From: Escherichia coli
GTDB lineage: Bacteria > Pseudomonadota > Gammaproteobacteria > Enterobacterales > Enterobacteriaceae
Length of the DNA: 64,000 nucleotides
Assembly (NCBI RefSeq): GCF_046105845.1
Contig: NZ_CP151004.1
Strand: one strand, 5' to 3'
Both the position numbers and the translations under genes were made by a program. A model generated the notes under the pieces. It saw only the letters and a list, made by a program, of their open reading frames with translations, did no database searches and was not told the origin of the DNA. How positions within the stretch are numbered: the first letter of the stretch is position 1; the number at the start of each line of letters is the position of its first letter. Shown one piece after another: positions 1-22,787 of the stretch.

Positions 1-22
1 TTTCCCCCAAAAGATGAAACAT

Positions 23-326: not shown

Positions 327-373
327 TTGTCTTGTGTTTATTTGTTTTTTAACTTTATTATCAATAAGTTAAA

Positions 374-970: not shown

Positions 971-1447
971 AATAGTAGTACTCCTAACTGAGATATATTT
1001 GAATGAATACCTATAGGAAACCTCAATCGGTCAAAATTAGCCCAATAGATAAAAAGATAACCACACACGAAGTGATGTGGCTATCAGTCAATTACATTAA
1101 ATATCATACAAAAATAAAATATCACCGATGTGACAACATCTATTTTCATTGATTTGATTCAATATAACAATAGATTGCAGAAGATTAACTTCCAGTTGCT
1201 TAAAAAATAAAGAAAAAAGTGTGGAAACAGGAGAATTTAAGTGATGTGTAAATTTATGAATGATTTTGTTTATTTATTTTGAAGAACATAAACCATTGGA
1301 TTTTGTATGGGTATGGTTAACTTAATGTTTATTATGATAATTAAGAATCACACTTACAATAACATCAATTAATAAATGGTTAATCATTTTTGATATATCG
1401 TAAGAATAATGTGTTTTTTAACACCATCCCTGGTATCCCATCCATCT

Positions 1448-2050: not shown

Positions 2051-3064
2051 CGTTTTTCCCTTATAATTACAGACGTGCACTAGCTGTGCTGGGTTAGCAA
2101 TAATCCAACATTTTTATCCTGATTATGTTTATAAAAGCGAACGTTTGCTTAATAACTAACGTAAGTGGACCAGTTCTTCTGAGTGAACTTAAATAGAGTA
2201 GCAACAGTTAATTATAATAACGTTGCCATACAAACGCTATGCTCTTGCATGCTATGTACCTTTATATATTTATCAATCTGATACGAATCTAATAATAACC
2301 CTCATCATTAATGCAACTAATCTTATCTATATATCATGTGATATGTTCTGTAACAAGTAAAATCAACATAAAAAATTCAGCAAAATTTAATATTCGTTCA
2401 ACTAGCCGTCTCACATATGACATTATTAGTCAACTGCATTTGCCACAAAATGGCTATTTCATGGAACGCAGTAATTTCTTAGTGGCTATTATCAAGCTAA
2501 TGCTTAGGTCCCTAGCTATTATTCCTACCTGGTTCGTCAGCTTAGGCCATGAGATTGTTACATTCCTTTTTATCCTGGAGATATGGGGGAACGCAGGCGA
2601 CGCTTTTTCATCTACATCCGTTGGTAAATATGGCTTTGGTCACTACGACTTAAACCTTCCTCAATCACAGCTATTCGCCGGGCGATACGGCAAACAAACT
2701 AAGTGAAACATCATCCTGAAAACACCAACATCAACAAGCCTCTCCAGATCGACTTCAGAAGCGACCAGTTACAAACCACAAATCAGGAAACATATTTCAT
2801 GGTGAGAATTATGCTCAACCTGATGGCGGGTAAACACTTGTTTTCACCACGCTCACTGAGTTAGCTTGCAAAGCTTCCCTTGTTTAGACCCTAAATAAAT
2901 TTTTTATAAAACAAACAGTTAAAAGAAAACCTTTAGTTTTTGAAGACCACCTCAAGTGTTCGTCTGGCTTCACATGGCATCTGCCTCTTAGAAAAAGATC
3001 GACATATTTTGTGACACGAATTGCAAATCTGGTTTTGTTGTATGGATTGCGTGATTTTTGATCT

Positions 3065-3086
3065 GGTATAACAGGTATAAAGGTGC
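3065..3086. promoter_or_regulatory. NanR operator-like GGTATA repeat in the fimB-nanC intergenic region
   Basis: GGTATAACAGGTATAAAGGTGCA, about 430 bp upstream of nanC; matches the GGTATA-repeat operator type known for NanR. Confidence 0.5.
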
Positions 3087-3502
3087 ACCACAATAGTCAA
3101 TGAGACAGGGCATCTCGCAATCTATGGCAAACATCACTTCAGTTCTTTCTCATCGGGTGATGAAAACGCACTTCTGTCTGAAAGGAATATGAAAATGAGA
3201 TCAACAGACACTCTATTTTATGACTCTGGGTAAAATGGATTGAGTAAGTGATATAGCTTACGAACATTCAAATCAATTAAACATCAGAAGAGATTTTATA
3301 CTCAGGTATTTAATCTGGTTCTCTGTTTATTTAAATAATGTGGAAAGAGAATTTTCACAGGAGACCTTATACAAAAAATATAAAATAAGCTACCCGTTGC
3401 CAAAGACACTATAAGCCTGGCAAAAAATATTACACAACATAAATGCTAATTGTTTATGCGGGCTTTGTATTGCTTTCTGTATCCTACAAATGAGTGAAAT
3501 AT

Positions 3503-4219
3503 ATGAAAAAGGCTAAAATACTTTCTGGCGTATTATTACTGTGCTTTTCGTTACCACTAATTTCTCAAGCTGCGACACTGGACGTACGTGGTGGATATCG
3601 TAGTGGAAGCCACGCCTATGAGACTCGACTCAAAGTCAGTGAGGGATGGCAAAATGGATGGTGGGCAAGTATGGAAAGTAATACCTGGAATACCATTCAT
3701 GATAATAAAAAGGAAAATGCCGCACTCAATGATGTTCAGGTTGAAGTTAATTACGCGATTAAACTTGATGATCAATGGACGGTGCGCCCGGGAATGTTAA
3801 CGCATTTTAGCAGCAACGGCACACGCTACGGACCCTACGTAAAACTGTCCTGGGACGCGACAAAAGATCTTAATTTTGGCATTCGCTATCGTTACGACTG
3901 GAAAGCTTACCGACAACAAGACTTATCCGGTGATATGTCTCGTGATAACGTTCATCGTTGGGATGGATATGTCACTTACCATATTAATAGTGATTTCACC
4001 TTCGCATGGCAAACGACGCTATACAGCAAACAGAACGATTATCGCTATGCAAACCACAAGAAATGGGCGACGGAAAATGCATTTGTTCTACAATACCATA
4101 TGACGCCCGATATTACGCCATACATAGAATATGACTACCTGGACCGTCAGGGTGTTTACAACGGCAGAGATAATTTATCGGAAAACAGTTATCGCATTGG
4201 TGTGTCATTTAAACTGTAG
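3503..4219 (+). CDS. nanC: N-acetylneuraminic acid outer-membrane channel NanC (KdgM-family porin, 238 aa)
   Basis: Signal peptide followed by beta-barrel-like sequence; conserved position upstream of nanM and nanS. Confidence 0.9.
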   Translation: MKKAKILSGVLLLCFSLPLISQAATLDVRGGYRSGSHAYETRLKVSEGWQNGWWASMESNTWNTIHDNKKENAALNDVQVEVNYAIKLDDQWTVRPGMLTHFSSNGTRYGPYVKLSWDATKDLNFGIRYRYDWKAYRQQDLSGDMSRDNVHRWDGYVTYHINSDFTFAWQTTLYSKQNDYRYANHKKWATENAFVLQYHMTPDITPYIEYDYLDRQGVYNGRDNLSENSYRIGVSFKL

Positions 4220-4238
4220 TAGACAGGAGACAGTCACA

Positions 4239-5345
4239 ATGAATAAAACAATAACGGCGCTTGCGATCATGATGGCTTCATTTGCCGCAAACGCGTCTGT
4301 ATTACCGGAAACTCCTGTGCCATTTAAAAGTGGTACCGGAGCAATTGATAACGACACTGTCTACATTGGTTTAGGTAGCGCAGGTACGGCATGGTACAAG
4401 CTGGATACACAGGCCAAAGATAAAAAATGGACAGCGTTAGCTGCATTCCCTGGCGGACCAAGAGATCAAGCAACCTCGGCATTTATTGATGGCAATCTGT
4501 ATGTGTTTGGCGGCATTGGCAAAAACAGCGAGGGCTTGACTCAGGTATTTAATGACGTACACAAATACAACCCCAAAACCAATAGCTGGGTTAAATTGAT
4601 GTCGCACGCGCCGATGGGCATGGCGGGCCATGTGACTTTTGTACACAACGGCAAGGCTTATGTTACTGGCGGTGTTAACCAGAATATCTTCAATGGCTAT
4701 TTTGAAGATCTCAACGAGGCTGGAAAAGATTCAACCGCTATAGATAAAATCAACGCCCACTATTTTGACAAAAAAGCAGAAGATTATTTCTTCAATAAGT
4801 TTCTGTTGTCTTTTGATCCCTCAACACAGCAATGGAGTTACGCTGGCGAATCTCCCTGGTACGGAACGGCTGGTGCGGCGGTTGTGAATAAAGGTGATAA
4901 AACCTGGCTTATTAATGGCGAAGCCAAACCAGGATTGCGAACGGATGCCGTATTTGAACTTGACTTCACCGGTAATAATTTAAAATGGAATAAGCTTGCT
5001 CCCGTCGCATCACCAGATGGCGTCGCTGGCGGTTTTGCGGGGATAAGCAATGATTCTCTTATATTTGCCGGAGGGGCCGGATTCAAAGGTTCACGAGAAA
5101 ATTACCAGAACGGTAAGAACTATGCGCATGAAGGCCTGAAAAAATCATATAGCACTGATATTCATCTTTGGCATAACGGGAAATGGGATAAATCGGGTGA
5201 ATTATCGCAAGGTCGGGCCTACGGAGTATCATTGCCCTGGAATAATAGTTTATTAATTATTGGCGGTGAAACTGCAGGTGGCAAAGCGGTGACGGATTCA
5301 GTTTTGATCTCTGTGAAGGATAATAAAGTCACAGTACAAAACTAA
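4239..5345 (+). CDS. nanM: N-acetylneuraminate mutarotase NanM (Kelch-repeat protein, 368 aa)
   Basis: Start at MNKTITALA with signal peptide and GGAGA-type RBS; repeated G-rich Kelch-like blades. Confidence 0.9.
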   Translation: MNKTITALAIMMASFAANASVLPETPVPFKSGTGAIDNDTVYIGLGSAGTAWYKLDTQAKDKKWTALAAFPGGPRDQATSAFIDGNLYVFGGIGKNSEGLTQVFNDVHKYNPKTNSWVKLMSHAPMGMAGHVTFVHNGKAYVTGGVNQNIFNGYFEDLNEAGKDSTAIDKINAHYFDKKAEDYFFNKFLLSFDPSTQQWSYAGESPWYGTAGAAVVNKGDKTWLINGEAKPGLRTDAVFELDFTGNNLKWNKLAPVASPDGVAGGFAGISNDSLIFAGGAGFKGSRENYQNGKNYAHEGLKKSYSTDIHLWHNGKWDKSGELSQGRAYGVSLPWNNSLLIIGGETAGGKAVTDSVLISVKDNKVTVQN

Positions 5346-5409
5346 TGCTTCAGGGCCCCAGTAAAGGGGCCCTGCTATCAATTTGTCATTTGTATTACGC
5401 GAAAATTAT

Positions 5410-6390
5410 ATGAACGCAATAATATCGCCCGATTATTACTATGTTCTTACCGTTGCTGGTCAGTCTAATGCCATGGCGTATGGCGAAGGACTGCCATTAC
5501 CGGACAGGGAAGATGCGCCTCATTCCAGAATTAAACAATTAGCGAGATTTGCGCATACGCATCCCGGAGGCCCGTCATGTCACTTTAACGACATTATTCC
5601 ACTGACTCACTGCCCACACGATGTTCAGGATATGCAGGGTTATCACCATCCTCTGGCAACGAATCATCAAACACAGTACGGCACCGTTGGCCAGGCACTG
5701 CATATTGCACGGAAATTACTGCCCTTTATTCCTGATAACGCAGGGGTTCTCATCGTTCCGTGTTGCCGTGGCGGATCGGCTTTTACCGCGGGCAGCGAAG
5801 GGACATATTCAGAACGGCACGGAGCCAGCCATGATGCTTGTCGTTGGGGAACGGATACTCCGCTATACCAGGATTTAGTCAGCAGAACGCGAGCCGCACT
5901 GGCAAAAAATCCGCAGAACAAATTCCTCGGCGTATGCTGGATGCAAGGCGAATTTGACTTAATGACCAGTGACTACGCGTCACACCCTCAACACTTTAAT
6001 CATATGGTTGAAGCCTTTCGTAGGGAGCTAAAACAATACCATTCTCAGCTTAATAATATTACTGACGCACCGTGGTTTTGCGGCGATACCACCTGGTACT
6101 GGAAAGAAAATTTCCCTCATGCGTATGAAGCTATTTATGGCAATTATCAAAATAATGTTTTAGCCAATATTATTTTCGTCGACTTCCAGCAACAAGGTGC
6201 AAGAGGACTGACGAACGCGCCTGATGAAGATCCAGACGATTTAAGCACGGGATATTACGGTTCAGCGTACCGGTCACCGGAGAACTGGACGACGGTACTG
6301 CGAAGCAGTCATTTCAGCGCGGCAGCCCGTCGGGGGATTATTTCTGACAGGTTTGTAGAAGCAATTTTGCAGTTTTGGCGCGAAAGGTGA
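5410..6390 (+). CDS. nanS: 9-O-acetyl-N-acetylneuraminate esterase NanS (326 aa)
   Basis: Start at MNAIISPDYYYVLTVAGQSNA with GQSN esterase motif; synteny with nanC and nanM. Confidence 0.88.
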   Translation: MNAIISPDYYYVLTVAGQSNAMAYGEGLPLPDREDAPHSRIKQLARFAHTHPGGPSCHFNDIIPLTHCPHDVQDMQGYHHPLATNHQTQYGTVGQALHIARKLLPFIPDNAGVLIVPCCRGGSAFTAGSEGTYSERHGASHDACRWGTDTPLYQDLVSRTRAALAKNPQNKFLGVCWMQGEFDLMTSDYASHPQHFNHMVEAFRRELKQYHSQLNNITDAPWFCGDTTWYWKENFPHAYEAIYGNYQNNVLANIIFVDFQQQGARGLTNAPDEDPDDLSTGYYGSAYRSPENWTTVLRSSHFSAAARRGIISDRFVEAILQFWRER

Positions 6391-6601
6391 GCGTTCATTA
6401 ATTTGATTTATTTGCATCCATTAGCGCTTTTAACTGCTCCGGCGTAAACGGTGGTTTGCGTCGGTGCAGCATCGCATGGCAATTAGGGCACACAGGAAGT
6501 AAAAAAACAAATGAGATCAAGGTAATATATCTTCACTTGCAGGCTTGAACAGCAGAAAATTTGCGAGCATGATCGCAATTATTTCACTGCCAGGGATATC
6601 A

Positions 6602-7474
6602 ATGGCTTCCAGTAAATCGCTACAGCAGGCAATTGCCAACATAAAAATCTGGCACAAGGGTGAACAGCGCGCGCCGCATAAGCCATTGTTATTGCTATAC
6701 GTATTAGCGGGATACCTGCATGGACATCCGCGCCTTTTCGATTATGGCTCGGAAATCTACGAACCTCTGCACAGTTTACTGGAACGTTTTGGGCCACAGC
6801 GTTCACAGTACCGACCTGATATGCCGTTCTGGCGATTACAAGGCGACGGATTCTGGCAATTACACAATGCCGAGCTTTGCTCAACAGCAGGGAGCAGCCG
6901 ACAACCGCCAGTGAAGGAACTGAACGAATACCACGTTGCAGGCGGTTTCGATGAACAGCACTACGCCCTGGTAACCGGCAATAAAAAACTCATCAATACT
7001 CTGGCGCAACAGATACTCGAAGCGCACTTCACCGAGAGTATTCAGGAAGAAATTGCTGACGAGCTGGGTTTTGATCTCCAGCAAATCCGTAAACAGCGCG
7101 ACCCGTTATTTCGCAAAAATGTATTACGCGCTTATAACTACCAGTGCGCGATATGTGGCTTTAATATGCGCCACGACGACACCACCGTCGCGCTTGAAGC
7201 GGCGCATATAAAATGGAAACAGCACGGCGGTCCTTGTGAAATTCCTAATGGCCTGGCGCTTTGCGCAATTCACCATAAAGCCTTTGATAAAGGATCGATT
7301 GGCCTGGATGAAAATATGCGGGTACTGGTCTCGGATGCGGTAAACGGCGGAGGGATCGTTGAGAAACTATTCTGGGATTTTGACGGGAAAACTATTGCGT
7401 TACCACAGGTGCGTAAAAATTACCCTTTTGAGGGGTTTGTAGAGTGGCATCGGAAAGAGGTTTTTAGGGGGTGA
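6602..7474 (+). CDS. HNH-endonuclease-domain protein with an uncharacterised N-terminal domain (about 290 aa)
   Basis: C-terminal CxxC...HIKW...NGLALCAIHH HNH-like motif; start chosen at ATG 6602 with an AGGGA RBS (the ORF track begins at TTG 6545). Confidence 0.65.
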   Translation: MASSKSLQQAIANIKIWHKGEQRAPHKPLLLLYVLAGYLHGHPRLFDYGSEIYEPLHSLLERFGPQRSQYRPDMPFWRLQGDGFWQLHNAELCSTAGSSRQPPVKELNEYHVAGGFDEQHYALVTGNKKLINTLAQQILEAHFTESIQEEIADELGFDLQQIRKQRDPLFRKNVLRAYNYQCAICGFNMRHDDTTVALEAAHIKWKQHGGPCEIPNGLALCAIHHKAFDKGSIGLDENMRVLVSDAVNGGGIVEKLFWDFDGKTIALPQVRKNYPFEGFVEWHRKEVFRG

Positions 7475-7784
7475 GGTAATACTTATTTTGCTGATTTAAC
7501 GTCTCTATCTGATTCAATTCGGCATCATGAACAGCCATGATATGCTTAATATGGGGCGAAGAAATTAGACCGTTATGATTGGTTTAGATTTCCGTTATTA
7601 CTTGCATTCGCTTTAGTTCCTAAAAGCCCCTGCCGTTAATGCCAGGCGCATTACGCAAAGGAGAATGATTAGTAAACAATAAGATTGAAAATCAGGAAGG
7701 CGACTCGCAATAAATCTGAAAGTCGCTTTCACATTGTTAAAATATATCCCTTACCACTCCTGTGTTGTGAACTGTTCATCACAC

Positions 7785-10700
7785 TTATAGCTGACGTTGA
7801 TCCAGACTGCTATATATCGCCTTTATTTCATTTTTTACGCCTTCGCCACGGTACACCAAAGACGTATCGTATCGTTGATATTTATCTTCTCGCGCAGCGC
7901 TGAACCAGTTAAAAGATCCAACGCACAACAACTCTTCATCCCTAATCACAATTTTGCTGTGAACGCGATTCACCAATTTTGTAGCAATGCCCATATTATT
8001 GAGCTTTTCGACTGCATCATTTAGAAGATGCAGTTTCTCCTGGCGCTTATCATCATCGATATGCGCAATATTGCAGTTTTTATCCGTTACCACGGTAATA
8101 TCAATACCTCGGGAGCGGGCCAGAGCCATTGACGTCAGAAACCCCGTTTGCTCCACTTTTTGCCAGGATAACCAGGGGGAAATAATCGTGATCTTCTGTT
8201 GAGCTGCGGCCAGAGCATTATTCAAGAATTCATCATGCTGCTCCACACCATGCAACGTTGAAATATGTGTCTGTGCGGAAATTAAATCCTGTCGTTTCTG
8301 AAACTCAAATTGCAACGCATTATTATCTGAAGCAAACAGAAATTTTGCCAATAACCCTCGTGGCGAAGATGCGGGCTGCATCTCAATAAGGTCCATATCG
8401 CCAAAGACCAGAAAACTATCCTTAGCGCGTGAGACAGCAACATTGAGGATACTGCTGTTGCTATCAAGAAACCTGCCATCTTCATGTTTTGAGTAGACTG
8501 GGGAAAAGAGAACAATCGCCCTTTCCGCACCCTGCAAGGAGTGCACAGTCCCCACTGTCAGTGAGCCCTCTTCGTCTTTGTCATTAATCTCCAGCTTACG
8601 CAATGACGTTTTGATGGCATTAACCTGCGCCGAAAATGGCGTCACAACACCAACAACTTTGTACAGAGGTTCCCCGTAATGGCGCTCTATATCATCCTTA
8701 TGTGTCGCCAGCCATGCTGCTATTGTTTCAGCTTCAAGAGGGTTATAACGGCTCCCCCCATTTGGCTTCATGCCTCGGCCATCAATATGCAGATATCCCA
8801 TTGCGGGAAAAATCGTCCCTTTTTCCATCCCTCTTTTAGGCTGCAACTTACCGTTATAGCAAAGTGAGTTACAGTAGCCGATGATGTTATTGAAACAGCG
8901 ACGATGCTCATACAGATACATTCCGCGCTCGAACTTGGGATCATACTGGTAGCGGGAGTTGAACTGGGCAACCTGCATTACGCTGCCAGATGCTGCACTT
9001 TTTCCAGACCTACACACATGGGAATATGTATTTATTAACTCTTCCTGAGTGCCACCAGAAAGAATATTCTCCTCAAGCATATTGCCCATATCAGTAACGG
9101 GTAGACAATTCCAGATTGGAGCTATTTGCTCCGTATCGCCAATCACCAGTGCTTTCTTCGCCAATGCAAAAGAGGCCGCAGCAACCTCCGGGAGTACCTG
9201 CCCTGCTTCATCGACAATCAGTAAATCGGCAAAGTTATATAAATAATTATTATCCGATGTTCTGTCCCCACCAAAAGATTTTCTCCTGTTCATATGGTAA
9301 GGCAACATGTAGCAGGTCATTACCACACAAGGAGTAAGTTTCATTCTTCTTAGCCAACGAGCCTCGGCGATAGTTGTCCCGGTAATTCCTTTTTCTTTTT
9401 GCAGGTTATCAATTGCCGCCATATCCATCAGCCAGCGACCTTCCCAATAATGAGTCGCTAACAAGAACGCTGGAAAACGAATCTGAGTATCGGCAAGCTC
9501 GTCCGCTCCGGCGAGGTTCAGCTCATCGTCTCCCCTGTAGCCCAGAGCATAAGTCAACCCGCGCCATTGTTTTGCTGCTTCCATTTCGCTTCGGGCTATG
9601 TCCTGCGCAAAGTTGATATTCTGTTGGCACGCCGCCTGCTCTTGTTGCGCTTTAGCGATCAAACTATCGATAAATTTATCAATATCTTCGGAACAATTTC
9701 CCTGGAACGCTGTCATTCTTGCGCCGAACGTAGAGTCCAGGAAGAGGTTAATCTGGTAATGGCGTTTAGCACGAACAGCAGGGAGCCATGACAAAAATGC
9801 ATACATAAGCGACTCATCGGCACGGTATTGCTGCCACTGCTTTTTACCTCTGGCTAAAAGTGAAATTTCGTTGCCAATATTGAGAAGAAGTGTGTTTTTG
9901 TCCTGAAGATACTGGTCGAGATTCTCACTGATGACTCGCTGTTCATGGCGGATATCATTGAGTCTGCGCCATGCAGGTTCGATTTGCTGAAGTTGCATAA
10001 CCTGTGAAGTTAAACGTTCATGCAAAAGCGTCACTACATGCTCTGGCGAATTGCACTCTCCAGCTCCAAACGCCGCCTCCGCTTTTTCAAGGTAAAAGGC
10101 CCGGGCTTTTTCCAGATATTCCAGGGATTCAACGCGGTTAAAAAAATCTTCAGTCTGGTATTTCTTCGCTGCCTCAACCTGACGGCTTTTAGACGGAAAA
10201 TAAGCGCCATAGCTTATTACTTCCGGCAACCAACGCCCAGACATTACGCCAAAACCAGTAGAGAAATCTTTTCCAAAGGCTTCAATAATATTGGTGACGG
10301 CCTGATTGTTAGTCGATGTGGCAATAATTACAGGAGGTTCAGTTTGATTAAGTGCGGCTCTTGTCCATTCGGTGGCAATAATAGAAAGCACCAGCGTAGT
10401 TTTACCCGTTCCCGGAGGACCGTTGACAGCGAGCATATCACCCTGCTGTTGAGTCAGATAATGGCTCAGGGCATCGCGCTGCGCCACTGCCAGCGGAAAC
10501 TTATCGCCGGAATGCCCCAGACGTTCGCAGAACATCGCATTCTTAGCGAGAAGTGGCTCCACTGGAGCCATTTCGTTTGAGGCAAAACGCGTTAATAGCG
10601 GAACCTTAACCTGGCTCATCAGAAGATGGTCATACATAGGCAGGATATGAACGCTGGCCCCTACATGCTGGCTAGCTTTAACAATATAACCGTATCCAGC

Positions 10701-11300
10701 CCGTTCGTATGGCTCAGATGTAGCGACCCAATTTCCAGCGACGTTTCTTAAAAGGTTATCTGACTGTTGTAGATAATTTTGCCAATGCTGACGATACCTG
10801 GCATGGCGTTCCGCTTTCTCTTCGTCAGTTTCTTCGTAATGTTCTGGTTCATCTTCATTAATGGTGGCTGTGTTATGCGTGGTTTTGTATTTGTCATATT
10901 GCGCCAACTCACCAATAGAAAAATGACCGGAAGGGAGAGGTTCAAGCAGATCGCGGGGAATAGTGGCTGAAGCGGCAGGAAACAAAAAACCTTCCCTATT
11001 CAGAAGAGCGGAGGTAACCAGTGGCGTGATAATTGCGGGTGCACCTGCCATTTGCTCTTTGCCATGCTTTACTATGCGGTTCCACACTTGGGGCCGTAAC
11101 ACGACTTCAACGGTTTTTACCGACTCCCCTTCACCGTCAAAAAATGCCCGAATAGTCTCGTCATCCAACTGCCCTGCGGTGATATTTATCCATCGAATGA
11201 ATGAATCTGTATCTTTACGTGAAAACGTTCCTTTACCAGATTCGGCGTCAGCTAAGGAGTTGCGCCAGTATGAAGTGAATCCCAATGTATTGCTGTCCAT
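7785..11300 (-). CDS. SF1 (Upf1-like) helicase fused to a C-terminal PLD-family HKD nuclease; Mokosh type II-like architecture
   Basis: Walker A GPPGTGKT (about 10397-10421), Walker B LIVDEAGQ, helicase motif [13 protein letters not shown]-terminal HSKIVIRD...GSFNW (HxKxxxxD...GSxN, near 7960); start taken at MDSNTLGF (11300). Confidence 0.8.
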
Positions 11301-11592
11301 TTTCCATTCCGTGACATAATAGAAATCATTGATTTCATTGATGTAAATATTACTTATGATTAAACATTGTCCACGATGCGAGCACGATCGCAATAAATAT
11401 TGTGCCTGGAGGATGGATTAGATTTTCTGAAAGAGCCGAATCCTTAATAGATAAGCGCAAACATACTTGGTTCGGTATTCTTAAGGGAATTAATATGGAT
11501 TGAACCAGGTGGAAAAAACAGCGGAAAAGATTTGTGTAGCGCGGATTTCAGGCATAAAAAAAGACCTCAGTTGAGGTCTATTTACATACTTT

Positions 11593-11610
11593 TGGTGCCG
11601 AAGGCCGGAC
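11593..11610. repeat. 18-bp direct repeat of the leuX 3' end; distal att-like boundary of the leuX island
   Basis: TGGTGCCGAAGGCCGGAC is identical to the reverse-complemented 3' end of the tRNA at 22703-22720. Confidence 0.7.
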
Positions 11611-11776
11611 CCGAATTTCACACCTAATAGACTGATATCAATATTGTTTATAAACAGGAATGAATAGTTATACCCGAACTTGTACCCACACGTTAAAATC
11701 CGTACAAAAAAATAGACATTGCAAGTGGGTATAAAGCCATACCAGTAGAACACCGATTTGGCTGTCAAAGCAAGAC

Positions 11777-13352
<1,576 letters not shown>

Positions 13353-13648
13353 TTTATTGATCTCAGGCTCACTCTAGCCATGGATAAAGAGCTTCATGAT
13401 CTAAGCTGACCTGCGGCGAACCTATTCTGCTAGCTGTAACTTTAGAGCGGTGCTCTCGGCGGAAACCATCGGCATGTGTACGCAAGAAAATAGCTGATTT
13501 GCTGTATACTTTGGCTATCACTACGCCAACATTCTCTGCGTATTCAAAAATCTGCCTGACAAAGTTCAGTTTTGTACTGTTTACATGACTCGATGGTTGT
13601 TGATGCTGGTTTTGTCATGTGAACGATAGATAGATGTAAGGCTACTTC

Positions 13649-13927: not shown

Positions 13928-15718
13928 GTGGAATCGATTACCAAACTTTACCAGACCCCGCTGCCATCTACCCGTACTGGCCCTTTGTATAATGCGTTCT
14001 CATATCCAACAAAGATTTCACCAGAAGCTATAGCGGTTTACATTGCTACGCACACCGAGCCCGGTGCAACAGTGTTAGACGCATTTGCTGGTAGTGGTAC
14101 CACAGGCTTAGCCACTCTGCTCTGTGACCGCCCTACACTCGAAATGAAGCGAATGGCGGAAAGCCTCGGCGCATCGCCAAAGTGGGGACCACGTAATGCA
14201 CAACTTTTTGACATTGGAACATTAGGGTCATTCGTATCTCAGACCATGTGCAATCCTCCTGATCCTGACGAATTTGCAGATGCAGTGAAGGAGCTATGTA
14301 AACAAGCTGAGTTACAATTGGGTTGGTTATACAGTATTAAAGATGCCAATGGCCAAGTAGGCATGCTCCGCCATGCTATTTGGTCTGATGTACTAATCTG
14401 CCCTAACTGTAATACTGAGACCTCACTTTGGGATGCCAGTGTGAAAACTAATCCCATCAAAATGGCTGATTCTTTCATTTGTAAGGGTTGCCAGAAGCTC
14501 GTATCTATTGAAGCTTGTGAAAGAGCCACAGAGACAATCTCTGATGTTTTCGGAAGTACACAGTGCACCAAAAAACGAGTGTTAGCTCGCGTGCATGGAC
14601 GTTGCGGAACAACAAAGTGGCAGAGGCCTCCAACTGATGAAGACTATGAGATTTTGGCTCGCATTGCCGAAATGCAGCCTCCAACATCAGCCCCAAACGT
14701 TGAAATTGAATGGGGAGAACTAAGACGCTCAGGCTATCATTTTGGGATAGATAAGCTCCATCATTTCTATACAAAGCGTAATTTCATTGCGATGGCTTTA
14801 CTAATGGAGCTAGTCAATAACTTTAATGAAAGCGTTCGAGAGGCCTTGCGGCTTCTTGTCCTTAGCTACAATGCGAGCCATTCGACACTCATGACTCGTG
14901 TAGTGCTAAAAAAAGGACAAAATGACTTTGTACTTACGGGCGCTCAAAGTGGCGTGCTCTACATCAGCGGATTTCCAGTTGAAAAAAATCTTATAGAGGG
15001 TATTCGTCGCAAATCTAATTCGTTCATAAACTCGTTCCGGCTTTTATACGGTAGTCAAAGTCAGGTAACTGTTCATAATGTTAGCAGTGAAACTATGCCA
15101 CTCAAGGACAATTCCGTGGATTACGCTTTCACTGACCCTCCTTTCGGCGATTATATCCCATACGCTGAGCTCAATCAGCTCAATGAGCTTTGGCTAGGGC
15201 GTTCCACTGATCGTAAACGTGAAGTCATTGTGAGCCCTTCTCAAGCTAAGGGAGTGAAAGAATACGGCAGTATGATGGGTACAGTATTCAAAGAAATGTC
15301 TAGGGTACTGAAGCATGACGCATTAGCTACCGTAGTATTTCACTCCGCACATTCGGAGATATGGAGAGCTCTAGTTCAAGCTTATACCGAAGCAGGATTC
15401 GCAGTGGAAGCAACAAGCGTACTTGATAAAATTCAGGCAAGTTTTAAACAAGTAGTTTCGAATGTTTCTGTTAAGGGTGACCCTCTATTATTGTTATCTA
15501 AGCGCAGCCAAGAACGTTCAGAGTCTAAGACTTGTGATTTAATCGCCGCTGAGATAATCAATAATGCTAAAAATGATTTGAAACCCGATCCACAGCGTCT
15601 CTATTCACAATTTGTGGGAAGATGTCTCGAGCTGGGCAGCAACGTTACTATGGATGCAAAAACCTTTTATGCACTTGCTCAAACCAACGGTTTATGTGTT
15701 AAAGGAACCAATACGTGA
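13928..15718 (+). CDS. DNA methyltransferase-like protein (N4/N6 beta-class-like core with permuted motif order and a Cys4 zinc-ribbon insert), 596 aa
   Basis: SAM motif I VLDAFAGSGTTG at residues 48-60, preceded by a YPTK context; CPNC...CKGC cysteine cluster; motif IV FTDPPFGDY at residues 401-409 (about 15134); GTG start; stop overlaps the next gene. Confidence 0.8.
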   Translation: MESITKLYQTPLPSTRTGPLYNAFSYPTKISPEAIAVYIATHTEPGATVLDAFAGSGTTGLATLLCDRPTLEMKRMAESLGASPKWGPRNAQLFDIGTLGSFVSQTMCNPPDPDEFADAVKELCKQAELQLGWLYSIKDANGQVGMLRHAIWSDVLICPNCNTETSLWDASVKTNPIKMADSFICKGCQKLVSIEACERATETISDVFGSTQCTKKRVLARVHGRCGTTKWQRPPTDEDYEILARIAEMQPPTSAPNVEIEWGELRRSGYHFGIDKLHHFYTKRNFIAMALLMELVNNFNESVREALRLLVLSYNASHSTLMTRVVLKKGQNDFVLTGAQSGVLYISGFPVEKNLIEGIRRKSNSFINSFRLLYGSQSQVTVHNVSSETMPLKDNSVDYAFTDPPFGDYIPYAELNQLNELWLGRSTDRKREVIVSPSQAKGVKEYGSMMGTVFKEMSRVLKHDALATVVFHSAHSEIWRALVQAYTEAGFAVEATSVLDKIQASFKQVVSNVSVKGDPLLLLSKRSQERSESKTCDLIAAEIINNAKNDLKPDPQRLYSQFVGRCLELGSNVTMDAKTFYALAQTNGLCVKGTNT

Positions 15719-17763
15719 TGAGTAAGCATGATGATAATCATATCGAGATTAGCTGCCCTATAGACTTTGAACGGCGAAAACGGCTGGGGCAGTACTTCAC
15801 GGGTACCGGCCTTGGTCGTTTGCTTGCAGCCCTTGCTCAAGCCGAAAAGGCTGACAGCATCATAGATCCTATGGTGGGATCTGGAGACCTACTTGCCTCT
15901 TGTATAGAGATTGATGCTAAACCTGCTGTAATGGCAGGTATCGAGATAGATATGAAAGTACATAAGGCTTGTTCAAAGCGATTGCCACATGCACATTGTT
16001 TACTTGGTAATGCTTTCGATCCCAGGGTTATTGCACAGTTGCCCGTAAAATCATGGGATTTAGTAATCGCAAATCCCCCTTATGTTCGCTATCAATCCCT
16101 TCGGGATAAAGATCACAATTCAAGCGCATTTCCTTCCGCAATGCAAATTCGAAAAATGTTGCTTCGATCGTTAGAGTTGATAGATACACTCGATAAAGAA
16201 GATAAGCGACTTTTTGCCGAACTCATCCACGGTTATTCTGGTCTATCCGATTTGGCAGTGCCTGCATGGATTCTCTGCGCTGCTTTGGTTGAGAAAGGAG
16301 GACGTTTAGCTCTAATTGTACCTGAGTCGTGGCTTAGCCGAGACTATGCAACAATAGTGAATTACCTTCTGTTTAGATGGTTCGACATAGAATTTGTTGT
16401 AGAGGACGAACATGCGTCATGGTTTGAAGAAGCTCAGATCAAGACAACATTGATCATCGCCAAGAGAATTCAACGTCGCTCTTCCAAACTCTCAATTCCT
16501 GCTGAATATCACTATTGTCACATAGCACTTGCAGCCGCAGCAGCTAACAACAGAAGTCCTATAGGTGGTATTAACTTACCGGTAAAAGAGGCTGAAAAGC
16601 TCTTCGCAAAACAGGCTCAAATCTGGCTCCGAGATGCGTCTAAACATGAAACGGGCCTTGTTAGCACTCGTCCAATTTCTCTAAATCACTCTTGCAAAAA
16701 TATGATCGCGTCAGCTTCCCGCCAAAAGTGGTTTGCCACTATGAGTAAAGCTGATGATGTTTTCAGCAACGAAGACTATATACCTCATGAGATCCACGAA
16801 TGGATTAAAAGGAATACACTTACCCCTTCGTTCGATAGTTTTGAATCTATAGGCATCGCTGTTGGCCAAGGACTTAGGACAGGTGCTAATAATTTTTTTT
16901 ACGCTAGCGGAGAATTAAAAGACGGACACGTCGAGCTATCTTTTTTAGGCCCGTTATCAGGATTGAAAGCTAGAAGCTCAATCAACATCGTTAAGCCCAC
17001 ATTACGCCGCCAATCAGAGCTGCCTAATGGTTTTGTAATTTCTCCTTCTGATGCCAAAAGTTGGACGTTAGACTTAAGAAACTATGTACTGCCCGAAGAT
17101 ATTGGCGATAATGATATATCTTGCACATCATATGAGCTTATGCCAAATGAACTTGTTAAGGTCGTTAGAGCTGCACAAGAAGCAAACTTTGGCACAAGCG
17201 AGAGGCCGCTAAAAATTTGGGAGCTGACGGCGGTCGCACCTAATATCCGACCTGCAACACCTCAGACTCCCGCTCGTCATTGGTATATGTTGCCAAATTT
17301 TACACCTCGCCATCAACCAGATGTATTCTTAGCACGTGTAAATACGCTAACCCCTAAGGCTTATCTAAATCAAGATAGAGCATGCCTTATCGATGCTAAT
17401 TTTTCGACAATGTGGTTATTAGATGATTCAAAATGGTCAGCAACTACAATCCTCGCTTTTATGAATTCTACATGGGTTCAAGCTGTAATCGAGTGTCTGG
17501 GGTCGGTTATGGGCGGCGGGGCGTTGAAAGTTGAGGCCACTCACCTACGCAAAATTCCTGTTCCAAAGTTTAATGATGAGCAAAGAAAAATTCTTTCCGA
17601 TCTTGGAAAAAAACTTGTAAAAGGCACACAGGAAAAACTAGTTATTTTAGAGATAGATAGGATAATAGCTGAAGCTTTGGGCTGTAATGACATGAATATT
17701 GATGAACTTAAACAGATTACGCATTTAGGTCAAACTCGGCGGGCTAAACACAAAGGAAGGTAG
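15715..17763 (+). CDS. N6-adenine DNA methyltransferase, gamma-class (Eco57I/TaqI-like) with a C-terminal TaqI_C-like domain, about 682 aa
   Basis: GQYFTG (motif X), DPMVGSGDLL (motif I), NPPYV (motif IV, about 16072), GLRTGANNFFY (TaqI_C-like GxxTGxNxxF); start overlaps the upstream stop (GTGATGA). Confidence 0.8.
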   Translation: MMSKHDDNHIEISCPIDFERRKRLGQYFTGTGLGRLLAALAQAEKADSIIDPMVGSGDLLASCIEIDAKPAVMAGIEIDMKVHKACSKRLPHAHCLLGNAFDPRVIAQLPVKSWDLVIANPPYVRYQSLRDKDHNSSAFPSAMQIRKMLLRSLELIDTLDKEDKRLFAELIHGYSGLSDLAVPAWILCAALVEKGGRLALIVPESWLSRDYATIVNYLLFRWFDIEFVVEDEHASWFEEAQIKTTLIIAKRIQRRSSKLSIPAEYHYCHIALAAAAANNRSPIGGINLPVKEAEKLFAKQAQIWLRDASKHETGLVSTRPISLNHSCKNMIASASRQKWFATMSKADDVFSNEDYIPHEIHEWIKRNTLTPSFDSFESIGIAVGQGLRTGANNFFYASGELKDGHVELSFLGPLSGLKARSSINIVKPTLRRQSELPNGFVISPSDAKSWTLDLRNYVLPEDIGDNDISCTSYELMPNELVKVVRAAQEANFGTSERPLKIWELTAVAPNIRPATPQTPARHWYMLPNFTPRHQPDVFLARVNTLTPKAYLNQDRACLIDANFSTMWLLDDSKWSATTILAFMNSTWVQAVIECLGSVMGGGALKVEATHLRKIPVPKFNDEQRKILSDLGKKLVKGTQEKLVILEIDRIIAEALGCNDMNIDELKQITHLGQTRRAKHKGR

Positions 17764-17772
17764 CAGAATTTT

Positions 17773-20700
17773 ATGGGAACAATTTACAATGAAACTCAAG
17801 GCTTAGCATTTCTGAAAGAAGCTGTAGCACTTATGGCTGATGGAAAAGCTGAGGATGTTCTGCGACATGCGCTATCTGCCAAACTGCCGCTCATGTTCCC
17901 TAAACAGCCATGGTGGATAAAAGCACATGTTACAGGTACAGAGTCGCTTGCTAAATTTCATGAATTTGGTTCGAAAAAGTATGGATTCGTGGATGTATTA
18001 GTAGGTTCAACTGTTATTGAATATGAAAGAAATTTACAAACACAGGGTTCATTCACACATGGGCTCCATCAGTTAAAACAATATTGTGCTTCTCTTCTTA
18101 ACAGCCACACGCCTTCAGATCTTTTAGTTGGGGTACTATCAGACACGATTCGCTGGTATGCCTTTCGTGTTTCAGACGTAAAAGATATTTCGGCTGTTCC
18201 CGGTGCGACAAGCTACGGCCCTGAACATATTGATTTAGCTGAAATTGAATCCTATGACCTGTCGGCAGCTGGGAGCATTGAGGCCAAAAAGCTTGGTAAA
18301 TTCTTGGTTCGATATCTGGGCCGAGAAGGTGGACGAACTTTAGCAGCATCCATGCTAGCAAAGGATTTAGGCTTTGAAAGCTCATTTTGCGAAACACATC
18401 TCCAGCAAATAGAAAAACTAGTTGATGTAGCTTTTGTAAGCGATCCATCCTACGCTGGGTTAATCACCAAACTCTGGATGGATTTTGTTTCTTACTTGGG
18501 TGGTGAATCTGCTACAGGTAAATTTGATAAAACTTCATATATTGGAGAATTGTACATATTAACGTTAGCCAAGCTTATTTGCGCTAACGTACTTAGCGGT
18601 AAAGGACTTGTTAGCGACGATACGGAACTATTATCAATTCTAGATGGTACATTTTTCAAAGCGAAAGGACTTCCGAATCTTGTAGAATACGACTACTTCG
18701 GTTGGCTTAATAATAGCCCTTATGTTTCCCCCCTTGCCAAAGTAGCACGCGACATTCAGAACGATCTATTAGCTTATGACTTTGAGTCTGCTCCAGCTGA
18801 AGACCTATTTGGTTCTCTAATGGCTCAGCTTGCAACACGCGCTCAACGTCTTCTCCTCGGTCAAGAATGGACACCAGCATGGCTAGCTGCGAAAGTAGTA
18901 AATGAAGCCATCAACAAACTGCCATTAAACCAGCAACCAAGATTCATCGATATGTGTTGCGGTTCAGGCACTATAGTTGTGGAGACAGTAAAAGCGGTCC
19001 AACAACGGTTACTTGCAGCAGGCTCTAAGCCAGGAGAACCTGCTGCGTTAAGCTCATTAGCCACTGCAATTACGGCTTTCGATATAGATCCGCTCGCCGT
19101 AATGTTAGCAAAAGTGGGCTGGGTACTGGCTTGCAAGGACTGGCTTATACCTGGCCATGAAGCCTTAATTCCTGTGTATCACGCAGACTCACTATTTGCC
19201 AATACTCCGGTCACCAAGGTGTTTAGTACAACAGGCGAAGAGCAACGCAAGCTAAAGCTTGACACAGAAGAGGTTGACCTACCACAATTTTTGGTCGAAT
19301 CGAAACATCAATCTCTATTTGATGCACTTTTATCACGTGGTTATGATATGGCCATGAGTAGTGCTGCAGAAGCCAAATCAACGTTAAATAATGATGATAT
19401 TGAGATAATGGTTGATTCGGTAGCTTTGCATTTAGACTGTGTGCTGTCAGCTGAAGAACGCACATCTACATTATTCTTTTGCTGCCAACTGTTACGCGCA
19501 CTTGAAGCATTGCAACGTGCTGGTCGAAACGGCATTTGGTCATTCGTTCTGAAAAATAGCTTTCGCCCAGCCTTAGTGGCGGGCCGTTTTAATGGAATTG
19601 TTACTAACCCACCATGGCTATCGCTAAGCCGCATTGGTAGCAACCCTTATCGTAATGCGTTAAAAGCAAAAGCGGATAAATATGGAATTAAGCCATCTGG
19701 CGCTTCACACCTGCATGTTGAAATCGCGACGACCTTCTTGCTACATGCTATCGATCATTATCTTACATCAGATGGGGTTGTTGCATGTATCTTACCCGAA
19801 ACAGTTCTGAACGGTTCTCATCATGAACCATTCCGGTCATCCAAGTATCTATCAGCTAATAGTCCAGCAGCATTCAATCCACAAGAAATTTGGAAAGTGG
19901 CCAGCCAAACATTTAAAAATGAGGCCATTGTTCTATTCGGTTATAAATCTAAGCCAACATTTCCAGTAGTAAGCCTCTTGGGCCGAAAAGTTAGCAGTTC
20001 ATTTGAAGAATTCTGCGAGTTTCACATCGTTAATTCTGGAGGGAAGTCTGCTTGGGCATTAGACCGCCCTGTAACAGAAGTGTTGAAAGTGGAAACTAAA
20101 GATTCAATTGGACCTCTGTTTAGACAAGGAGCCGATATAATGCCCCGCGGAATTATTTTTCATGATATCAAAAAAAACGGAATATCATGGGATCTTGGTC
20201 CCATTCATCCCGGCTCATCACTATATTTTTTGCGTTCTGAGGGTAAAATTCTTAAGGACTTTTCTTTAAGCGCCTGTGGGGTGAACGATGGAGTGATATA
20301 TGATGTGCTTCTTTCAAAACATTTAGCCCCTTGGGAATTATCTGTAGGTTCAAAGGCCTTATTACCATTCCAGCGTAGTGACGATAAGTGGCTCGCTCGT
20401 ACTGGATCAAATATTGCAGCCCTAGGAGCTTCTACTGCCTCAGCAATCAAAGCTATGTTGACGGCAACCGGTGAAAACATAGAAGATTTCTTTTTACGAA
20501 TCGATACTGATCGCAAGAAATTAACCACCCAGAGTTGGAGCTCAGAAGACTGGGTTGTATTCGGGTCTGCTGGAGGTAAATGGCCATGCGCCGCTTACAC
20601 ACGCGGAGAGCAGATTCCCTGCTCTAAAACGATAATAGACCAAACGCTCTATTGGGGCGTAGTCAAAAGTGAGGATGAAGCGATATACATTACTGCACTA

Positions 20701-21018
20701 ATTAATAGTCCTGCGGTAATGAATGTGATTGTATCCCATCAACCTAGAGGATCCTTTGGGGAACGACACATACACAAGTTGGCTTTCGACCGGACACCTT
20801 CTTATGACCAAACCTCAGCTAAACATCTCGACGTTGTTCGCTCGGCGAAGGATTTGATGAATCAGTGGGCTAATCGTCGCATGGAAGCTGACATATCTCC
20901 CATGCTATCTCCTAGTGTTCACTTAATTACTCGCAGAAAAAAGATTCGTAATGCATTAGAGTCATTGCCTGCATGGGAGCCGTACGTGGCAGCCACTCAA
21001 GCTATATATGAAATTTAA
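17773..21018 (+). CDS. Large multidomain protein (1081 aa): HsdR/MmeI-like N-terminal domain, central gamma-class SAM-methyltransferase core, large C-terminal domain; Type IIG/IIL-like
   Basis: N-terminal D74...E83-x-E85...Q100xxxY104 pattern; GQEWTPAW (motif X-like); FIDMCCGSGT (motif I, about 18943); DIDPLAVMLAKV; NPPW (motif IV, about 19606); RBS AAGGAAGG upstream of ATG 17773. Confidence 0.8.
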   Translation: MGTIYNETQGLAFLKEAVALMADGKAEDVLRHALSAKLPLMFPKQPWWIKAHVTGTESLAKFHEFGSKKYGFVDVLVGSTVIEYERNLQTQGSFTHGLHQLKQYCASLLNSHTPSDLLVGVLSDTIRWYAFRVSDVKDISAVPGATSYGPEHIDLAEIESYDLSAAGSIEAKKLGKFLVRYLGREGGRTLAASMLAKDLGFESSFCETHLQQIEKLVDVAFVSDPSYAGLITKLWMDFVSYLGGESATGKFDKTSYIGELYILTLAKLICANVLSGKGLVSDDTELLSILDGTFFKAKGLPNLVEYDYFGWLNNSPYVSPLAKVARDIQNDLLAYDFESAPAEDLFGSLMAQLATRAQRLLLGQEWTPAWLAAKVVNEAINKLPLNQQPRFIDMCCGSGTIVVETVKAVQQRLLAAGSKPGEPAALSSLATAITAFDIDPLAVMLAKVGWVLACKDWLIPGHEALIPVYHADSLFANTPVTKVFSTTGEEQRKLKLDTEEVDLPQFLVESKHQSLFDALLSRGYDMAMSSAAEAKSTLNNDDIEIMVDSVALHLDCVLSAEERTSTLFFCCQLLRALEALQRAGRNGIWSFVLKNSFRPALVAGRFNGIVTNPPWLSLSRIGSNPYRNALKAKADKYGIKPSGASHLHVEIATTFLLHAIDHYLTSDGVVACILPETVLNGSHHEPFRSSKYLSANSPAAFNPQEIWKVASQTFKNEAIVLFGYKSKPTFPVVSLLGRKVSSSFEEFCEFHIVNSGGKSAWALDRPVTEVLKVETKDSIGPLFRQGADIMPRGIIFHDIKKNGISWDLGPIHPGSSLYFLRSEGKILKDFSLSACGVNDGVIYDVLLSKHLAPWELSVGSKALLPFQRSDDKWLARTGSNIAALGASTASAIKAMLTATGENIEDFFLRIDTDRKKLTTQSWSSEDWVVFGSAGGKWPCAAYTRGEQIPCSKTIIDQTLYWGVVKSEDEAIYITALINSPAVMNVIVSHQPRGSFGERHIHKLAFDRTPSYDQTSAKHLDVVRSAKDLMNQWANRRMEADISPMLSPSVHLITRRKKIRNALESLPAWEPYVAATQAIYEI

Positions 21019-21266: not shown

Positions 21267-22512
21267 CTACCCAAACTCAAACGGACTTACTCCTTTCTCC
21301 CGATTCGCATCAAGGTAATCAGCCCACCACTGCAGCATCAACCTCCTCTCCCCCAGATGCTCCGCCTTATGGATGTAGGCAGCCCTAGCAGAGCTACGCT
21401 CCTGATGGCTCATCTGCCGCGACACCGCATTCCTCGACCACAATCCCGATTCAATCAATGAGCTACACGCCATCGTTCTGAAACCATGTCCACATACTTC
21501 CGTTTTCGTGTCATAGCCCATCACTCGCAGAGCCTTGTTAACCGTATTCTCACTCATCGGCTTACGCGGATCGTGATTACCAACGGAGATCAGCTCTCGG
21601 TTTCCATTCATGCTTTTGATCTTTTCCAAAATAGCTAAGGCCTGACGCGACAAGGGAACAAGATGTGGAGTCCTCATCTTCGAACCACGTTGAGAATGCT
21701 TAACACCTTCCAGCGGTTCACGCTCTCCCGGAATCGTCCACATAGCCGTTTTAAAAATCCACTTCTGACCAGCGAGCAAAACGCAACTCGCTTGAACGGA
21801 TGAAAACCAGCAAAGTGAGTTCAACCGCCAGTCGTGTTAACGGCCTGCCAGAATAGTGATCAATGCGGTGAAGTAATTCAGTAATACGGTTAAGTTCCAG
21901 AGCTGCACGGTGCTGTCGTTTTGCCGTAGCAACCGCACCGGCAATCTCTTGTGCTGGGTTATAATCGATTAAGCCGCTCTGAACGGCAAACCGCATAATC
22001 GCAGTAGTTCGCTGTTGCAAACGAGCCGCAACTTCTAGTCGTCCGGAAGATTCCACCGCTTTGACGGGTACAAGAAGATCCCACGTCTTCAATTCAGCAA
22101 TGTTCCGCTTACCGATAGTAGTAAAGAGATTATCTTCGAAACTTTTCAATACACGAGCGCTATGCGATGCAGACCACTTCTGATTGCTGGCGTGCCAGTC
22201 TCTGGCAACCACTTCAAACGTTATCGCCTCTTGATCCTGCTCTATTTTAACTGCTTTCTTGTTCTCACTGGGAGCGACGCCATTAGCTAACAATTTACGG
22301 GCTTCATCCCGGCGTGTCCGGGCATCTGCCAGCGACTCTTGAGGGTATTTCCCCAGCGCCAGTATCTTCTCGTTGCCACCAAAGCGGTAACGTAGACTCC
22401 AGTATTTTGAATCGTTAGGGTGAACCAGCAACACCATGCCTTCGCCATCAGCCAGCTTATAGACTTTTATTTCAGGCTGGGCAGCACGAACCTTCACATA
22501 ACTAAGAGCCAT
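21267..22512 (-). pseudogene. P4-type (tyrosine recombinase) integrase next to leuX, reading frame split by a frameshift
   Basis: Two overlapping ORFs (22512-21751 and 21824-21267) together give an integrase of about 415 aa (N-terminal MALSYVKVRAAQ..., C-terminal catalytic region GHGFRTM...); overlap at 21751-21824. Confidence 0.7.
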
Positions 22513-22702
22513 GATGAGTGTCCTTTCAAAGGTTCTGTGTGGTACAAACATTATCGAACCGGGATATACCCACAGTTGTACCCACATCAGTAAGTTGATG
22601 TAGATTGAATTAGGTTGAGTGAAAAAGTGAGGAAGGCATTGCGGATACTGGATTTCAGACACAAAAAAAGCCGCCCTTGAGCGACTCGATTTGCATACGA
22701 TG

Positions 22703-22787
22703 TGGTGCCGAAGGCCGGACTCGAACCGGCACGTATTTCTACGGTTGATTTTGAATCAACTGCGTCTACCGATTTCGCCACTTCGGC
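22703..22787 (-). tRNA. leuX: tRNA-Leu (CAA), leuX
   Basis: Reverse complement reads GCCGAAGTGGCGAAATCGGTAGACGCAGTTGATTCAAAATCAACCGTAGAAATACGTGCCGGTTCGAGTCCGGCCTTCGGCACCA: cloverleaf with long variable arm, CAA anticodon, CCA end. Confidence 0.95.

Follow-up and report, generated by a model that had tools for sequence, protein, structure and literature searches.

In the known Eco57I-type systems, one methylase and one bifunctional enzyme are enough. Type IIL enzymes such as MmeI and DrdV (PDB 5HR4 and 7LO5) work alone and modify one strand. Another layout is that of the Type IIG enzymes BpuSI, BsmFI, and BspLU11III (IIS/IIC; PDB 3S1S), in which two separate methylase genes are linked to a gene encoding a restriction-modification (R-M) fusion (PMC3185434). 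The BpuSI operon comprises M1, M2, and the R-M fusion; the methylase of the fusion protects the host incompletely, and the R-M gene was not clonable without M1 and M2 (PMC3185434). Here, I analyzed a stretch of 64,000 nucleotides of Escherichia coli DNA (contig NZ_CP151004.1 of the assembly GCF_046105845.1; hereafter, the window) which carries an operon of three methyltransferase genes, named genes 1 to 3 (Table 1). It is likely that the three genes constitute a Type IIG/IIS-like R-M system, in which the RM enzyme encoded by gene 3 has two companion methylases encoded by genes 1 and 2, as in BpuSI. This reading is based on the domain architecture, fold, motif conservation, synteny, and co-inheritance. 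In a preliminary description, a Type IIS/IIG system with two separate methylases and a bifunctional enzyme was named as the nearest analogy; the architecture, fold, and synteny favor it. The same description took the system for atypical or undescribed. That was overstated, since the layout of two methylases plus a fusion is known for BpuSI (PMC3185434). In the literature, I found no paper on the three protein accessions and, among the 15 titles and abstracts listed, nothing relevant on three methyltransferases in connection with Type IIG or anti-phage systems. The triad appears to be an uncharacterised family member of a known R-M layout, which by sequence falls in neither the BpuSI-type nor the Eco57I-type family.

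The order of the gene-3 domains is nuclease, helical connector, gamma-class N6-adenine methylase, and recognition domain, which is a Type IIG/IIL architecture. As judged from the AlphaFold model of the full-length protein (predicted local distance difference test score, pLDDT, of 82), gene 3 is a Type IIG-like enzyme with nuclease, methyltransferase, and recognition domain in one polypeptide. The preliminary description had noted that the operon has no canonical stand-alone nuclease. This remains correct, but a nuclease domain is present, fused in gene 3, as seen with AlphaFold and Foldseek. It had also proposed structure prediction for the terminal domains of gene 3, and the outcome is a PD-(D/E)xK domain at the N-terminus and a recognition domain at the C-terminus. 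In the Foldseek search with the gene-3 model, PglX, MmeI, BpuSI, and DrdV were aligned over about 940-1200 alignment columns with E values of about 1e-12 to 1e-10, and the methylase and recognition domains of BseCI and CamA were superposed with a template modelling (TM) score of about 0.6 normalised to the target. The further matches of the gene-3 fold searches were mostly PD-(D/E)xK nucleases (Cas4, Dna2, HsdR, NucC, McrC, RecB, and several Type II enzymes).

At the sequence level, the PADLOC model REase_MTase_IIG matches residues 286-689 of gene 3 (2e-48), and the Pfam Eco57I model matches residues 433-690. In a search of PDB sequences with the family profile, the methylase core matched CamA (7e-17), BsaXI (3e-12), Type I M subunits (StySJI M, 1e-10), MmeI (3e-8), and BrxX (1e-6) as well as DrdV, while a profile built from the close gene-3 family gave only a weak match to PglX in PDB sequences. 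The N-terminus of the E. coli protein has no Pfam match; among 34 relatives, the MmeI_N model is matched by one at E <= 0.001 and by three at E <= 0.1. Residues E57, D74, E83, Y104, and D124 are invariant in 34 gene-3 homologues down to 21% identity, and distant gene-3 clades keep the canonical D-x8-E-x-K motif. The recognition domain has a constant scaffold (FRQGADIMPR, DQTLYW, and GERHIHK) and variable patches. The most variable windows of 30 residues in gene 3, at residues 721-780, 811-840, and 871-900, lie in this domain.

Is gene 3 regularly accompanied by the two methylases? Loci with gene-3 relatives were taken from metagenomes and 100,044 species genomes, and each locus was searched by tblastn for the three proteins. 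It was found that genes 1 and 2 lie beside gene 3 in 17 of the 19 informative loci (those with at least 27% identity in gene 3 and enough flank). The hosts of the full triad belong to Gammaproteobacteria, Betaproteobacteria, Alphaproteobacteria, Bacillota, Mycobacterium, and Bacteroidota, that is, to four phyla. Three arrangements were seen: the usual gene 1-gene 2-gene 3, gene 3-gene 1-gene 2 in a metagenomic locus (L006), and genes 1 and 2 divergent from gene 3 in Pontibacillus chungwhensis (L020). Whatever the arrangement, gene 1 directly precedes gene 2 in all full triads. The pairwise identities among the three genes correlate with r values of 0.90-0.94 (0.93-0.94 for gene 1 against genes 2 and 3). 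Gene 1 is the slowest-evolving gene: the E. coli version is 46-50% identical to its counterparts in the loci of Bacillota, Mycobacterium, and Alphaproteobacteria, where gene 3 shows 27-41%. In the 14 loci compared, each of the three methylases keeps its motifs I and IV (14/14); judged by these intact motifs, all three methylases look active. Thus, the co-occurrence in 17 of 19 loci across four phyla, the three gene orders, and the correlated divergence indicate that the triad is one inherited module.

These results make it barely credible that the operon consists of orphan methyltransferases clustered by chance and lacking a common function. Nothing speaks for such a cluster except that all three proteins are methylases, whereas the translational coupling described below, the synteny over four phyla with three gene orders, the correlated divergence, and the nuclease domain fused to gene 3 speak against it. 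A single-gene system of the MmeI type was ruled out by the linkage of genes 1 and 2 in the 17 of 19 informative loci. Gene 3 shares its overall architecture and fold with MmeI and DrdV, and, in addition to the match between the methylase core and MmeI, a few members of the gene-3 family are matched by the Pfam MmeI_N model. For gene-3 homologues of 26% identity or less, no relative of gene 1 or gene 2 was found within the fetched flanks, and these distant relatives look like Type IIL enzymes. Unlike the solitary Type IIL enzymes, members of the clade of E. coli gene 3 are always accompanied by two further methylases.

An exception to the full triad is a locus of Massiliimalia massiliensis (L010, 1262-6597). 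A serine-recombinase element truncates gene 2, of which only the C-terminal end is left, and in the short upstream flank available, nothing matched gene 1. Gene 3 of this locus has an in-frame stop codon (between IYGK and RNQ). Loss of gene 3 where the methylases are lost is what would follow if gene 3 were harmful in the absence of genes 1 and 2. In the two loci with a rearranged gene order (L006 and L020), gene 3 has the canonical D-x8-E-x-K motif; the identities of L020 to the E. coli operon are 50% for gene 1, 36% for gene 2, and 27% for gene 3. This pattern, with genes 1 and 2 of L020 much nearer to the E. coli versions than gene 3, hints that the restriction gene may have been swapped between modules. 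Neither gene 1 nor gene 3 matched anything in 50,697 phage records, and a gene on a Hymenobacter plasmid is the only close plasmid-borne relative found.

Gene 1 resembles a methylase that is known from another defense system. According to a BREX survey of 2026, the BrxXI methylase of BREX type 3 has a large insert between its motifs with a four-cysteine zinc finger, and the recognition domain in this insert has no homologues outside BREX (PMC12839542). In gene 1, motif I is followed by an insert of about 330 residues with a four-cysteine zinc ribbon and then by DPPF. The Pfam N6_N4_Mtase model is matched in a permuted order, its C-terminal part at residues 24-67 and its N-terminal part at residues 397-534. 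The PADLOC PglX/PglXI model matches gene 1 with 388 bits (1.8e-116), and the match covers positions 110-616 of the 919 in the profile. Positions 616-919, which correspond to a helix-turn-helix (HTH) region of roughly 300 residues at the C-terminus, are unmatched, and gene 1 lacks this region. The motifs of gene 1 are kept in 14 of 14 syntenic loci. By these matches, gene 1 is a predicted amino-methyltransferase of the BrxXI/PglXI type. The permuted methylase had been thought to fit no textbook family, but its layout is that of this known type (PADLOC model; PMC12839542). Gene 1 and its many relatives match the PglXI model across the insert and sit in non-BREX loci; gene 1 and its relatives, of which the database has more than 2000, appear to be homologues of the BrxXI insert outside BREX.

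The hallmark of BrxXI/PglXI, the insert with its four-cysteine zinc finger, is thus shared by gene 1, whereas the C-terminal HTH domains are missing and the locus has no other BREX genes. Membership in BREX was rejected, as PglZ, BrxC, BrxHII, and BrxA/BrxF were absent from related islands as annotated by RefSeq, from the neighborhood as scanned with PADLOC, and from the related loci. MADS and Hma/DUF1156 were likewise rejected, with scores far under the family cut-offs. For MADS, the NCBIfam MAD2 model gave 14.5-19 bits against a cut-off of 720, and the PADLOC mad2 matches were weak. For Hma/DUF1156, gene 1 scored 40 bits against a cut-off of 1000, and there is no conserved ATPase or helicase partner.

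Gene 2 matches the Pfam models N6_Mtase, Eco57I, and, weakly, TaqI_C. PF22837 (M_Eco57I_C) is present on a database protein identical to gene 2 and on its homologues, one of which is labelled 'Modification methylase Eco57IB' in one source. The motifs of gene 2 are kept in 14 of 14 loci. Gene 2 is therefore taken, on its motifs and domains, as a gamma-class N6-adenine methyltransferase with a C-terminal recognition domain of the M.Eco57I/TaqI type. The family of the Alw26I/Eco31I/Esp3I methylases was considered for gene 2 and rejected (47.7 bits against a cut-off of 353.5). No pairwise similarity between gene 2 and gene 3 was detected by BLASTP, and thus nothing points to a recognition domain common to both. 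In PADLOC, NCBIfam, and Pfam, neither gene 1 nor gene 2 matched a C5-methylase family.

With the Eco57I-type systems (R.Eco57I and M.Eco57I), the triad shares a bifunctional enzyme with a separate methylase, the Eco57I and M_Eco57I_C domains of gene 2, and the Eco57I match of gene 3. It differs in having a third gene (gene 1) and in scores far below the NCBIfam family cut-offs. As in the BpuSI group, two separate methylase genes are linked to an RM fusion gene. However, BpuSI and its group have no detectable sequence similarity to gene 3 outside the methylase core, and the nuclease motif is D-x8-E-x-E here versus PD-x15-ExK in BpuSI. The companions also differ: an amino-methylase and a C5-methylase accompany BpuSI, while here a BrxXI-type and an M.Eco57I-type amino-methylase (DPPF and NPPY) are found. 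Gene 3 can also be compared with PglX/BrxX of BREX type 1 (PDB 8C45 and 9EWZ), with which it aligns by fold over about 940-1080 columns (E about 1e-12 to 1e-9). PglX is also the best, though weak, match of gene 3 among PDB sequences. PglX is not known to have a nuclease domain, and it depends on PglZ, BrxC, and further partners. In contrast, gene 3 has a PD-(D/E)xK domain, and it has neither PglZ nor BrxC nor such partners.

The preliminary description of three co-directional, tightly packed open reading frames (ORFs) of 596, 682, and 1081 residues was borne out by the ORF listing and the junction sequences. The methyltransferase motifs dependent on S-adenosylmethionine (SAM), reported there for each protein, were all found at the places given, and Pfam agrees. 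More than 1200 database homologues at E <= 1e-5 were found for each of the three proteins. With over 1000 homologues per protein, genes 1 to 3 are real genes. At the junction of genes 1 and 2 (ACG-TGA-TG), the stop codon TGA of gene 1 occupies 15716-15718, and gene 2 may start either with GTG at 15715, giving an overlap of 4 nucleotides, or with ATG at 15718 as in RefSeq, giving an overlap of 1 nucleotide. AAGGA lies 9-13 nucleotides upstream. At the junction of genes 2 and 3, the stop codon TAG (17761-17763) is followed by 9 nucleotides and the ATG at 17773, which is preceded by AAAGGAAGG. Both junctions fit translational coupling.

A mechanism may be proposed on this basis. Gene 3 would be a single-chain enzyme whose recognition and N6-adenine methylase domains bind a specific, probably asymmetric, DNA sequence, and whose N-terminal PD-(D/E)xK domain would cut DNA that lacks the modification, probably at a distance and using SAM as a cofactor. 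The products of genes 1 and 2 would be stand-alone amino-methyltransferases that mark the host copies of the site, probably one strand each. The methylase of gene 3 itself may be insufficient for full protection, as for BpuSI. Translational coupling in the order M1, M2, and RM would keep modification ahead of restriction. It is by analogy that I infer cleavage by gene 3, the asymmetry of the site, the assignment of a strand to each methylase, and the restriction of phages or plasmids.

Several observations weigh against an R-M system with an active nuclease. In phmmer searches with gene 3 alone, no PDB sequence was found at E <= 1, and the profiles of the gene-3 family match PDB sequences only in the methylase core and none in the N-terminal domain. 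The clade of E. coli gene 3 always has a glutamate (E85) in the position of the catalytic lysine, giving E83-Y-E85. Position 86 is variable (R, K, S, or A), and the gene-3 alignments have no invariant basic residue able to replace the lysine. R127 and position 86 were considered as compensating basic residues for K85 and rejected, as no consistent covariation was seen in the two alignments examined (A1 and A2). It is known that nuclease sites of the E-x-E and E-x-Q type can be active, as in BamHI and BglII. Thus, it is plausible that the nuclease domain of gene 3 is active and cleaves DNA.

Further points of this kind concern the number of methylases. All three methylases have amino-methylase motifs, and the strand chemistry gives no reason for a third one, unlike the amino- and C5-methylases of BpuSI. 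In a Hymenobacter cellulosilyticus plasmid (CP095047.1, 6122-7904; L002), a frameshift near codon 335 disrupts gene 1, and genes 2 and 3 look intact. Either the frameshift is an error of sequencing, or the system can do without gene 1.

The replaced lysine could also mean that the nuclease domain is dead and has a structural or DNA-binding role. The operon would then mark DNA and exclude foreign DNA in a BREX-like manner without cutting, either by cleavage-free exclusion or via an unlinked effector. The loss of the lysine throughout the E. coli clade, the BrxXI/PglXI type of gene 1, the resemblance of gene 3 to PglX (in fold, and weakly in sequence), and the intact gene 3 beside the broken gene 1 of the Hymenobacter plasmid all fit this explanation. 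I nevertheless consider it unlikely. The strict conservation of E57, D74, E83, and E85 in the clade is not expected of a decayed site, the sister clades of the triad keep E-x-K (L006 and L020), no conserved PglZ, BrxC, or helicase partner lies next to the triad, and the M. massiliensis locus has a nonsense mutation in gene 3 where the methylases were lost.

It is quite improbable, too, that two functions merely lie side by side, with genes 2 and 3 forming an Eco57I-like pair and gene 1 serving another specificity, for example, protection from another restriction system or epigenetic regulation. The sufficiency of one methylase beside one bifunctional enzyme in the known Eco57I-type systems, the Pfam Eco57I domains of genes 2 and 3, the M_Eco57I_C domain of gene 2, and the frameshift of gene 1 in one otherwise intact locus (L002) are in line with such a division. 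However, every full triad has gene 1 as the immediate upstream neighbor of gene 2, and gene 1 is better conserved than genes 2 and 3 and diverges in step with them (r 0.93-0.94). A somewhat less remote, though still doubtful, idea is that the triad is a distinct defense family spread over several phyla, with an obligatory, slowest-evolving BrxXI-type methylase and a conserved E-x-E nuclease, in which restriction would be licensed only by the absence of two or three independent methyl marks, or the three proteins would act as one complex. Such a family could also be the evolutionary source of the BREX type 3 methylase.

If the Type IIG-like R-M reading is true, the triad adds a widespread, uncharacterised enzyme family to this type. 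It would have practical value for new restriction specificities and for predicting the barriers that transformation and phage therapy would meet in strains carrying it. That a methylase of the BrxXI/PglXI type, complete with nested insert and zinc finger, occurs outside BREX in a classical-looking R-M module bears on the origin of the BREX type 3 methylase. A whole clade of gene-3 nuclease domains has the lysine changed to glutamate, and their ability to cut DNA is a clean question for biochemistry.

Table 1. Features of the three-gene operon and its flank (positions in the window; aa, amino acid residues; nt, nucleotides)
Feature	Position (nt)	Strand	Remarks
Gene 1 (M1)	13928-15718	+	596 aa, GTG start
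Gene 1 motif I FAGSGTT	14084-14104	+	aa 53-59; motif scan
Gene 1 four-cysteine zinc ribbon	CPNC 14399-14410; CKGC 14480-14491	+	CPNC aa 158-161; CKGC aa 185-188; in nested insert of about 330 aa
Gene 1 motif IV DPPF	15134-15145	+	aa 403-406; motif scan
Gene 2 (M2)	15715-17763	+	682 aa; RefSeq start is ATG 15718
Gene 2 motif X GQYFTG	15787-15804	+	motif scan
Gene 2 motif I DPMVGSG	15865-15885	+	motif scan
Gene 2 motif IV NPPY	16072-16083	+	motif scan
Gene 3 (RM)	17773-21018	+	1081 aa
Gene 3 N-terminal PD-(D/E)xK nuclease domain (predicted)	17773-18267	+	aa 1-165
Gene 3 catalytic-motif region GFVD74-x8-E83-Y-E85-R	17983-18030	+	
Gene 3 Q100xxxY104	18070-18084	+	
Gene 3 S-D124-T	18136-18147	+	
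Gene 3 helical connector	18268-18852	+	aa 166-360; all-helical in the model; counterpart of the BpuSI connector (PMC3185434)
Gene 3 gamma-class N6-adenine methyltransferase core	18853-19872	+	aa 361-700; motifs I and IV invariant
Gene 3 motif I DMCCGSG	18949-18969	+	aa 393-399
Gene 3 motif IV NPPW	19606-19617	+	aa 612-615
Gene 3 C-terminal target-recognition domain (predicted)	19873-21015	+	aa 701-1081
Island tyrosine integrase	21267-22662	-	two overlapping ORFs, 21267-21824 and 21751-22662 (frameshifted)
tRNA-Leu(CAA), leuX	22703-22787	-	ARAGORN; attachment site, island anchor

The operon lies next to the tyrosine integrase of a genomic island at leuX, which is the E. coli defense hotspot number 37, and this location supports a defense role. 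The preliminary description had placed the operon in a leuX island beside a decayed nuclease gene. This agrees with the location of tRNA-Leu(CAA) and with the records sharing the operon, in which a pseudogene beside yjhR is annotated as a 'restriction endonuclease' that has a frameshift and lacks its N-terminal part. The setting it took to be of the defense type likewise fits the hotspot and the neighbors, Mokosh type II and an HNH-type restriction enzyme. The operon has a GC content of 43.5%, versus 50.3% for the core flank. It was found in 4 of the 5426 complete E. coli genomes, with the three genes annotated intact in each, and would thus be a rare cargo of the hotspot in this species. The integrase is also annotated as frameshifted by RefSeq in strain N1420, and the island in E. 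coli is probably no longer mobile, as judged from these sequences. In strain AF16, an IS100 insertion (istA/istB) further interrupts the integrase (L001 23768-26971). Upstream of the operon in E. coli, there are an IS3 remnant and non-coding DNA. An upstream controller (C) protein was considered and rejected, as the small upstream ORFs of three related loci are mutually unrelated. A scan of promoters and terminators gave fewer sites than in shuffled sequence and was therefore uninformative.

Other genes of the island were also inspected. An ORF of 1202 residues at 7785-11393 on the minus strand (YjhR helicase in RefSeq) matches the PADLOC model of MkoC, the protein of the single-gene Mokosh type II system, over the full length with 1471 bits. 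For an ORF of 309 residues at 6545-7474 on the plus strand, the PADLOC matches are models of HNH restriction enzymes and one of a Type IV methyl-directed enzyme; in related strains, the ORF is called 'phosphorothioated DNA-binding restriction endonuclease' by RefSeq. Thus, several defense systems are stacked at leuX. In AF16 and N1420, an extra stand-alone HNH gene adjoins the counterpart of the 309-residue ORF, and the matching gap in the window has no ORF of at least 150 residues. Two complete genomes (NZ_CP176489.1 and NZ_OZ547176.1) carry the operon region with 100% identity. The upstream flank (window positions 1-13500) aligns with the same genomes at 97.6% identity and 94% coverage in three pieces, not one. 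The nan-HNH-yjhR part is found without the three-gene operon in other E. coli. Outside the island, the lowest GC content of the window (34%) is at 42001-44000 in the yjgL-yjgN region, which matches 5425 of the 5426 E. coli genomes with a best identity of 98.2% and looks ordinary.

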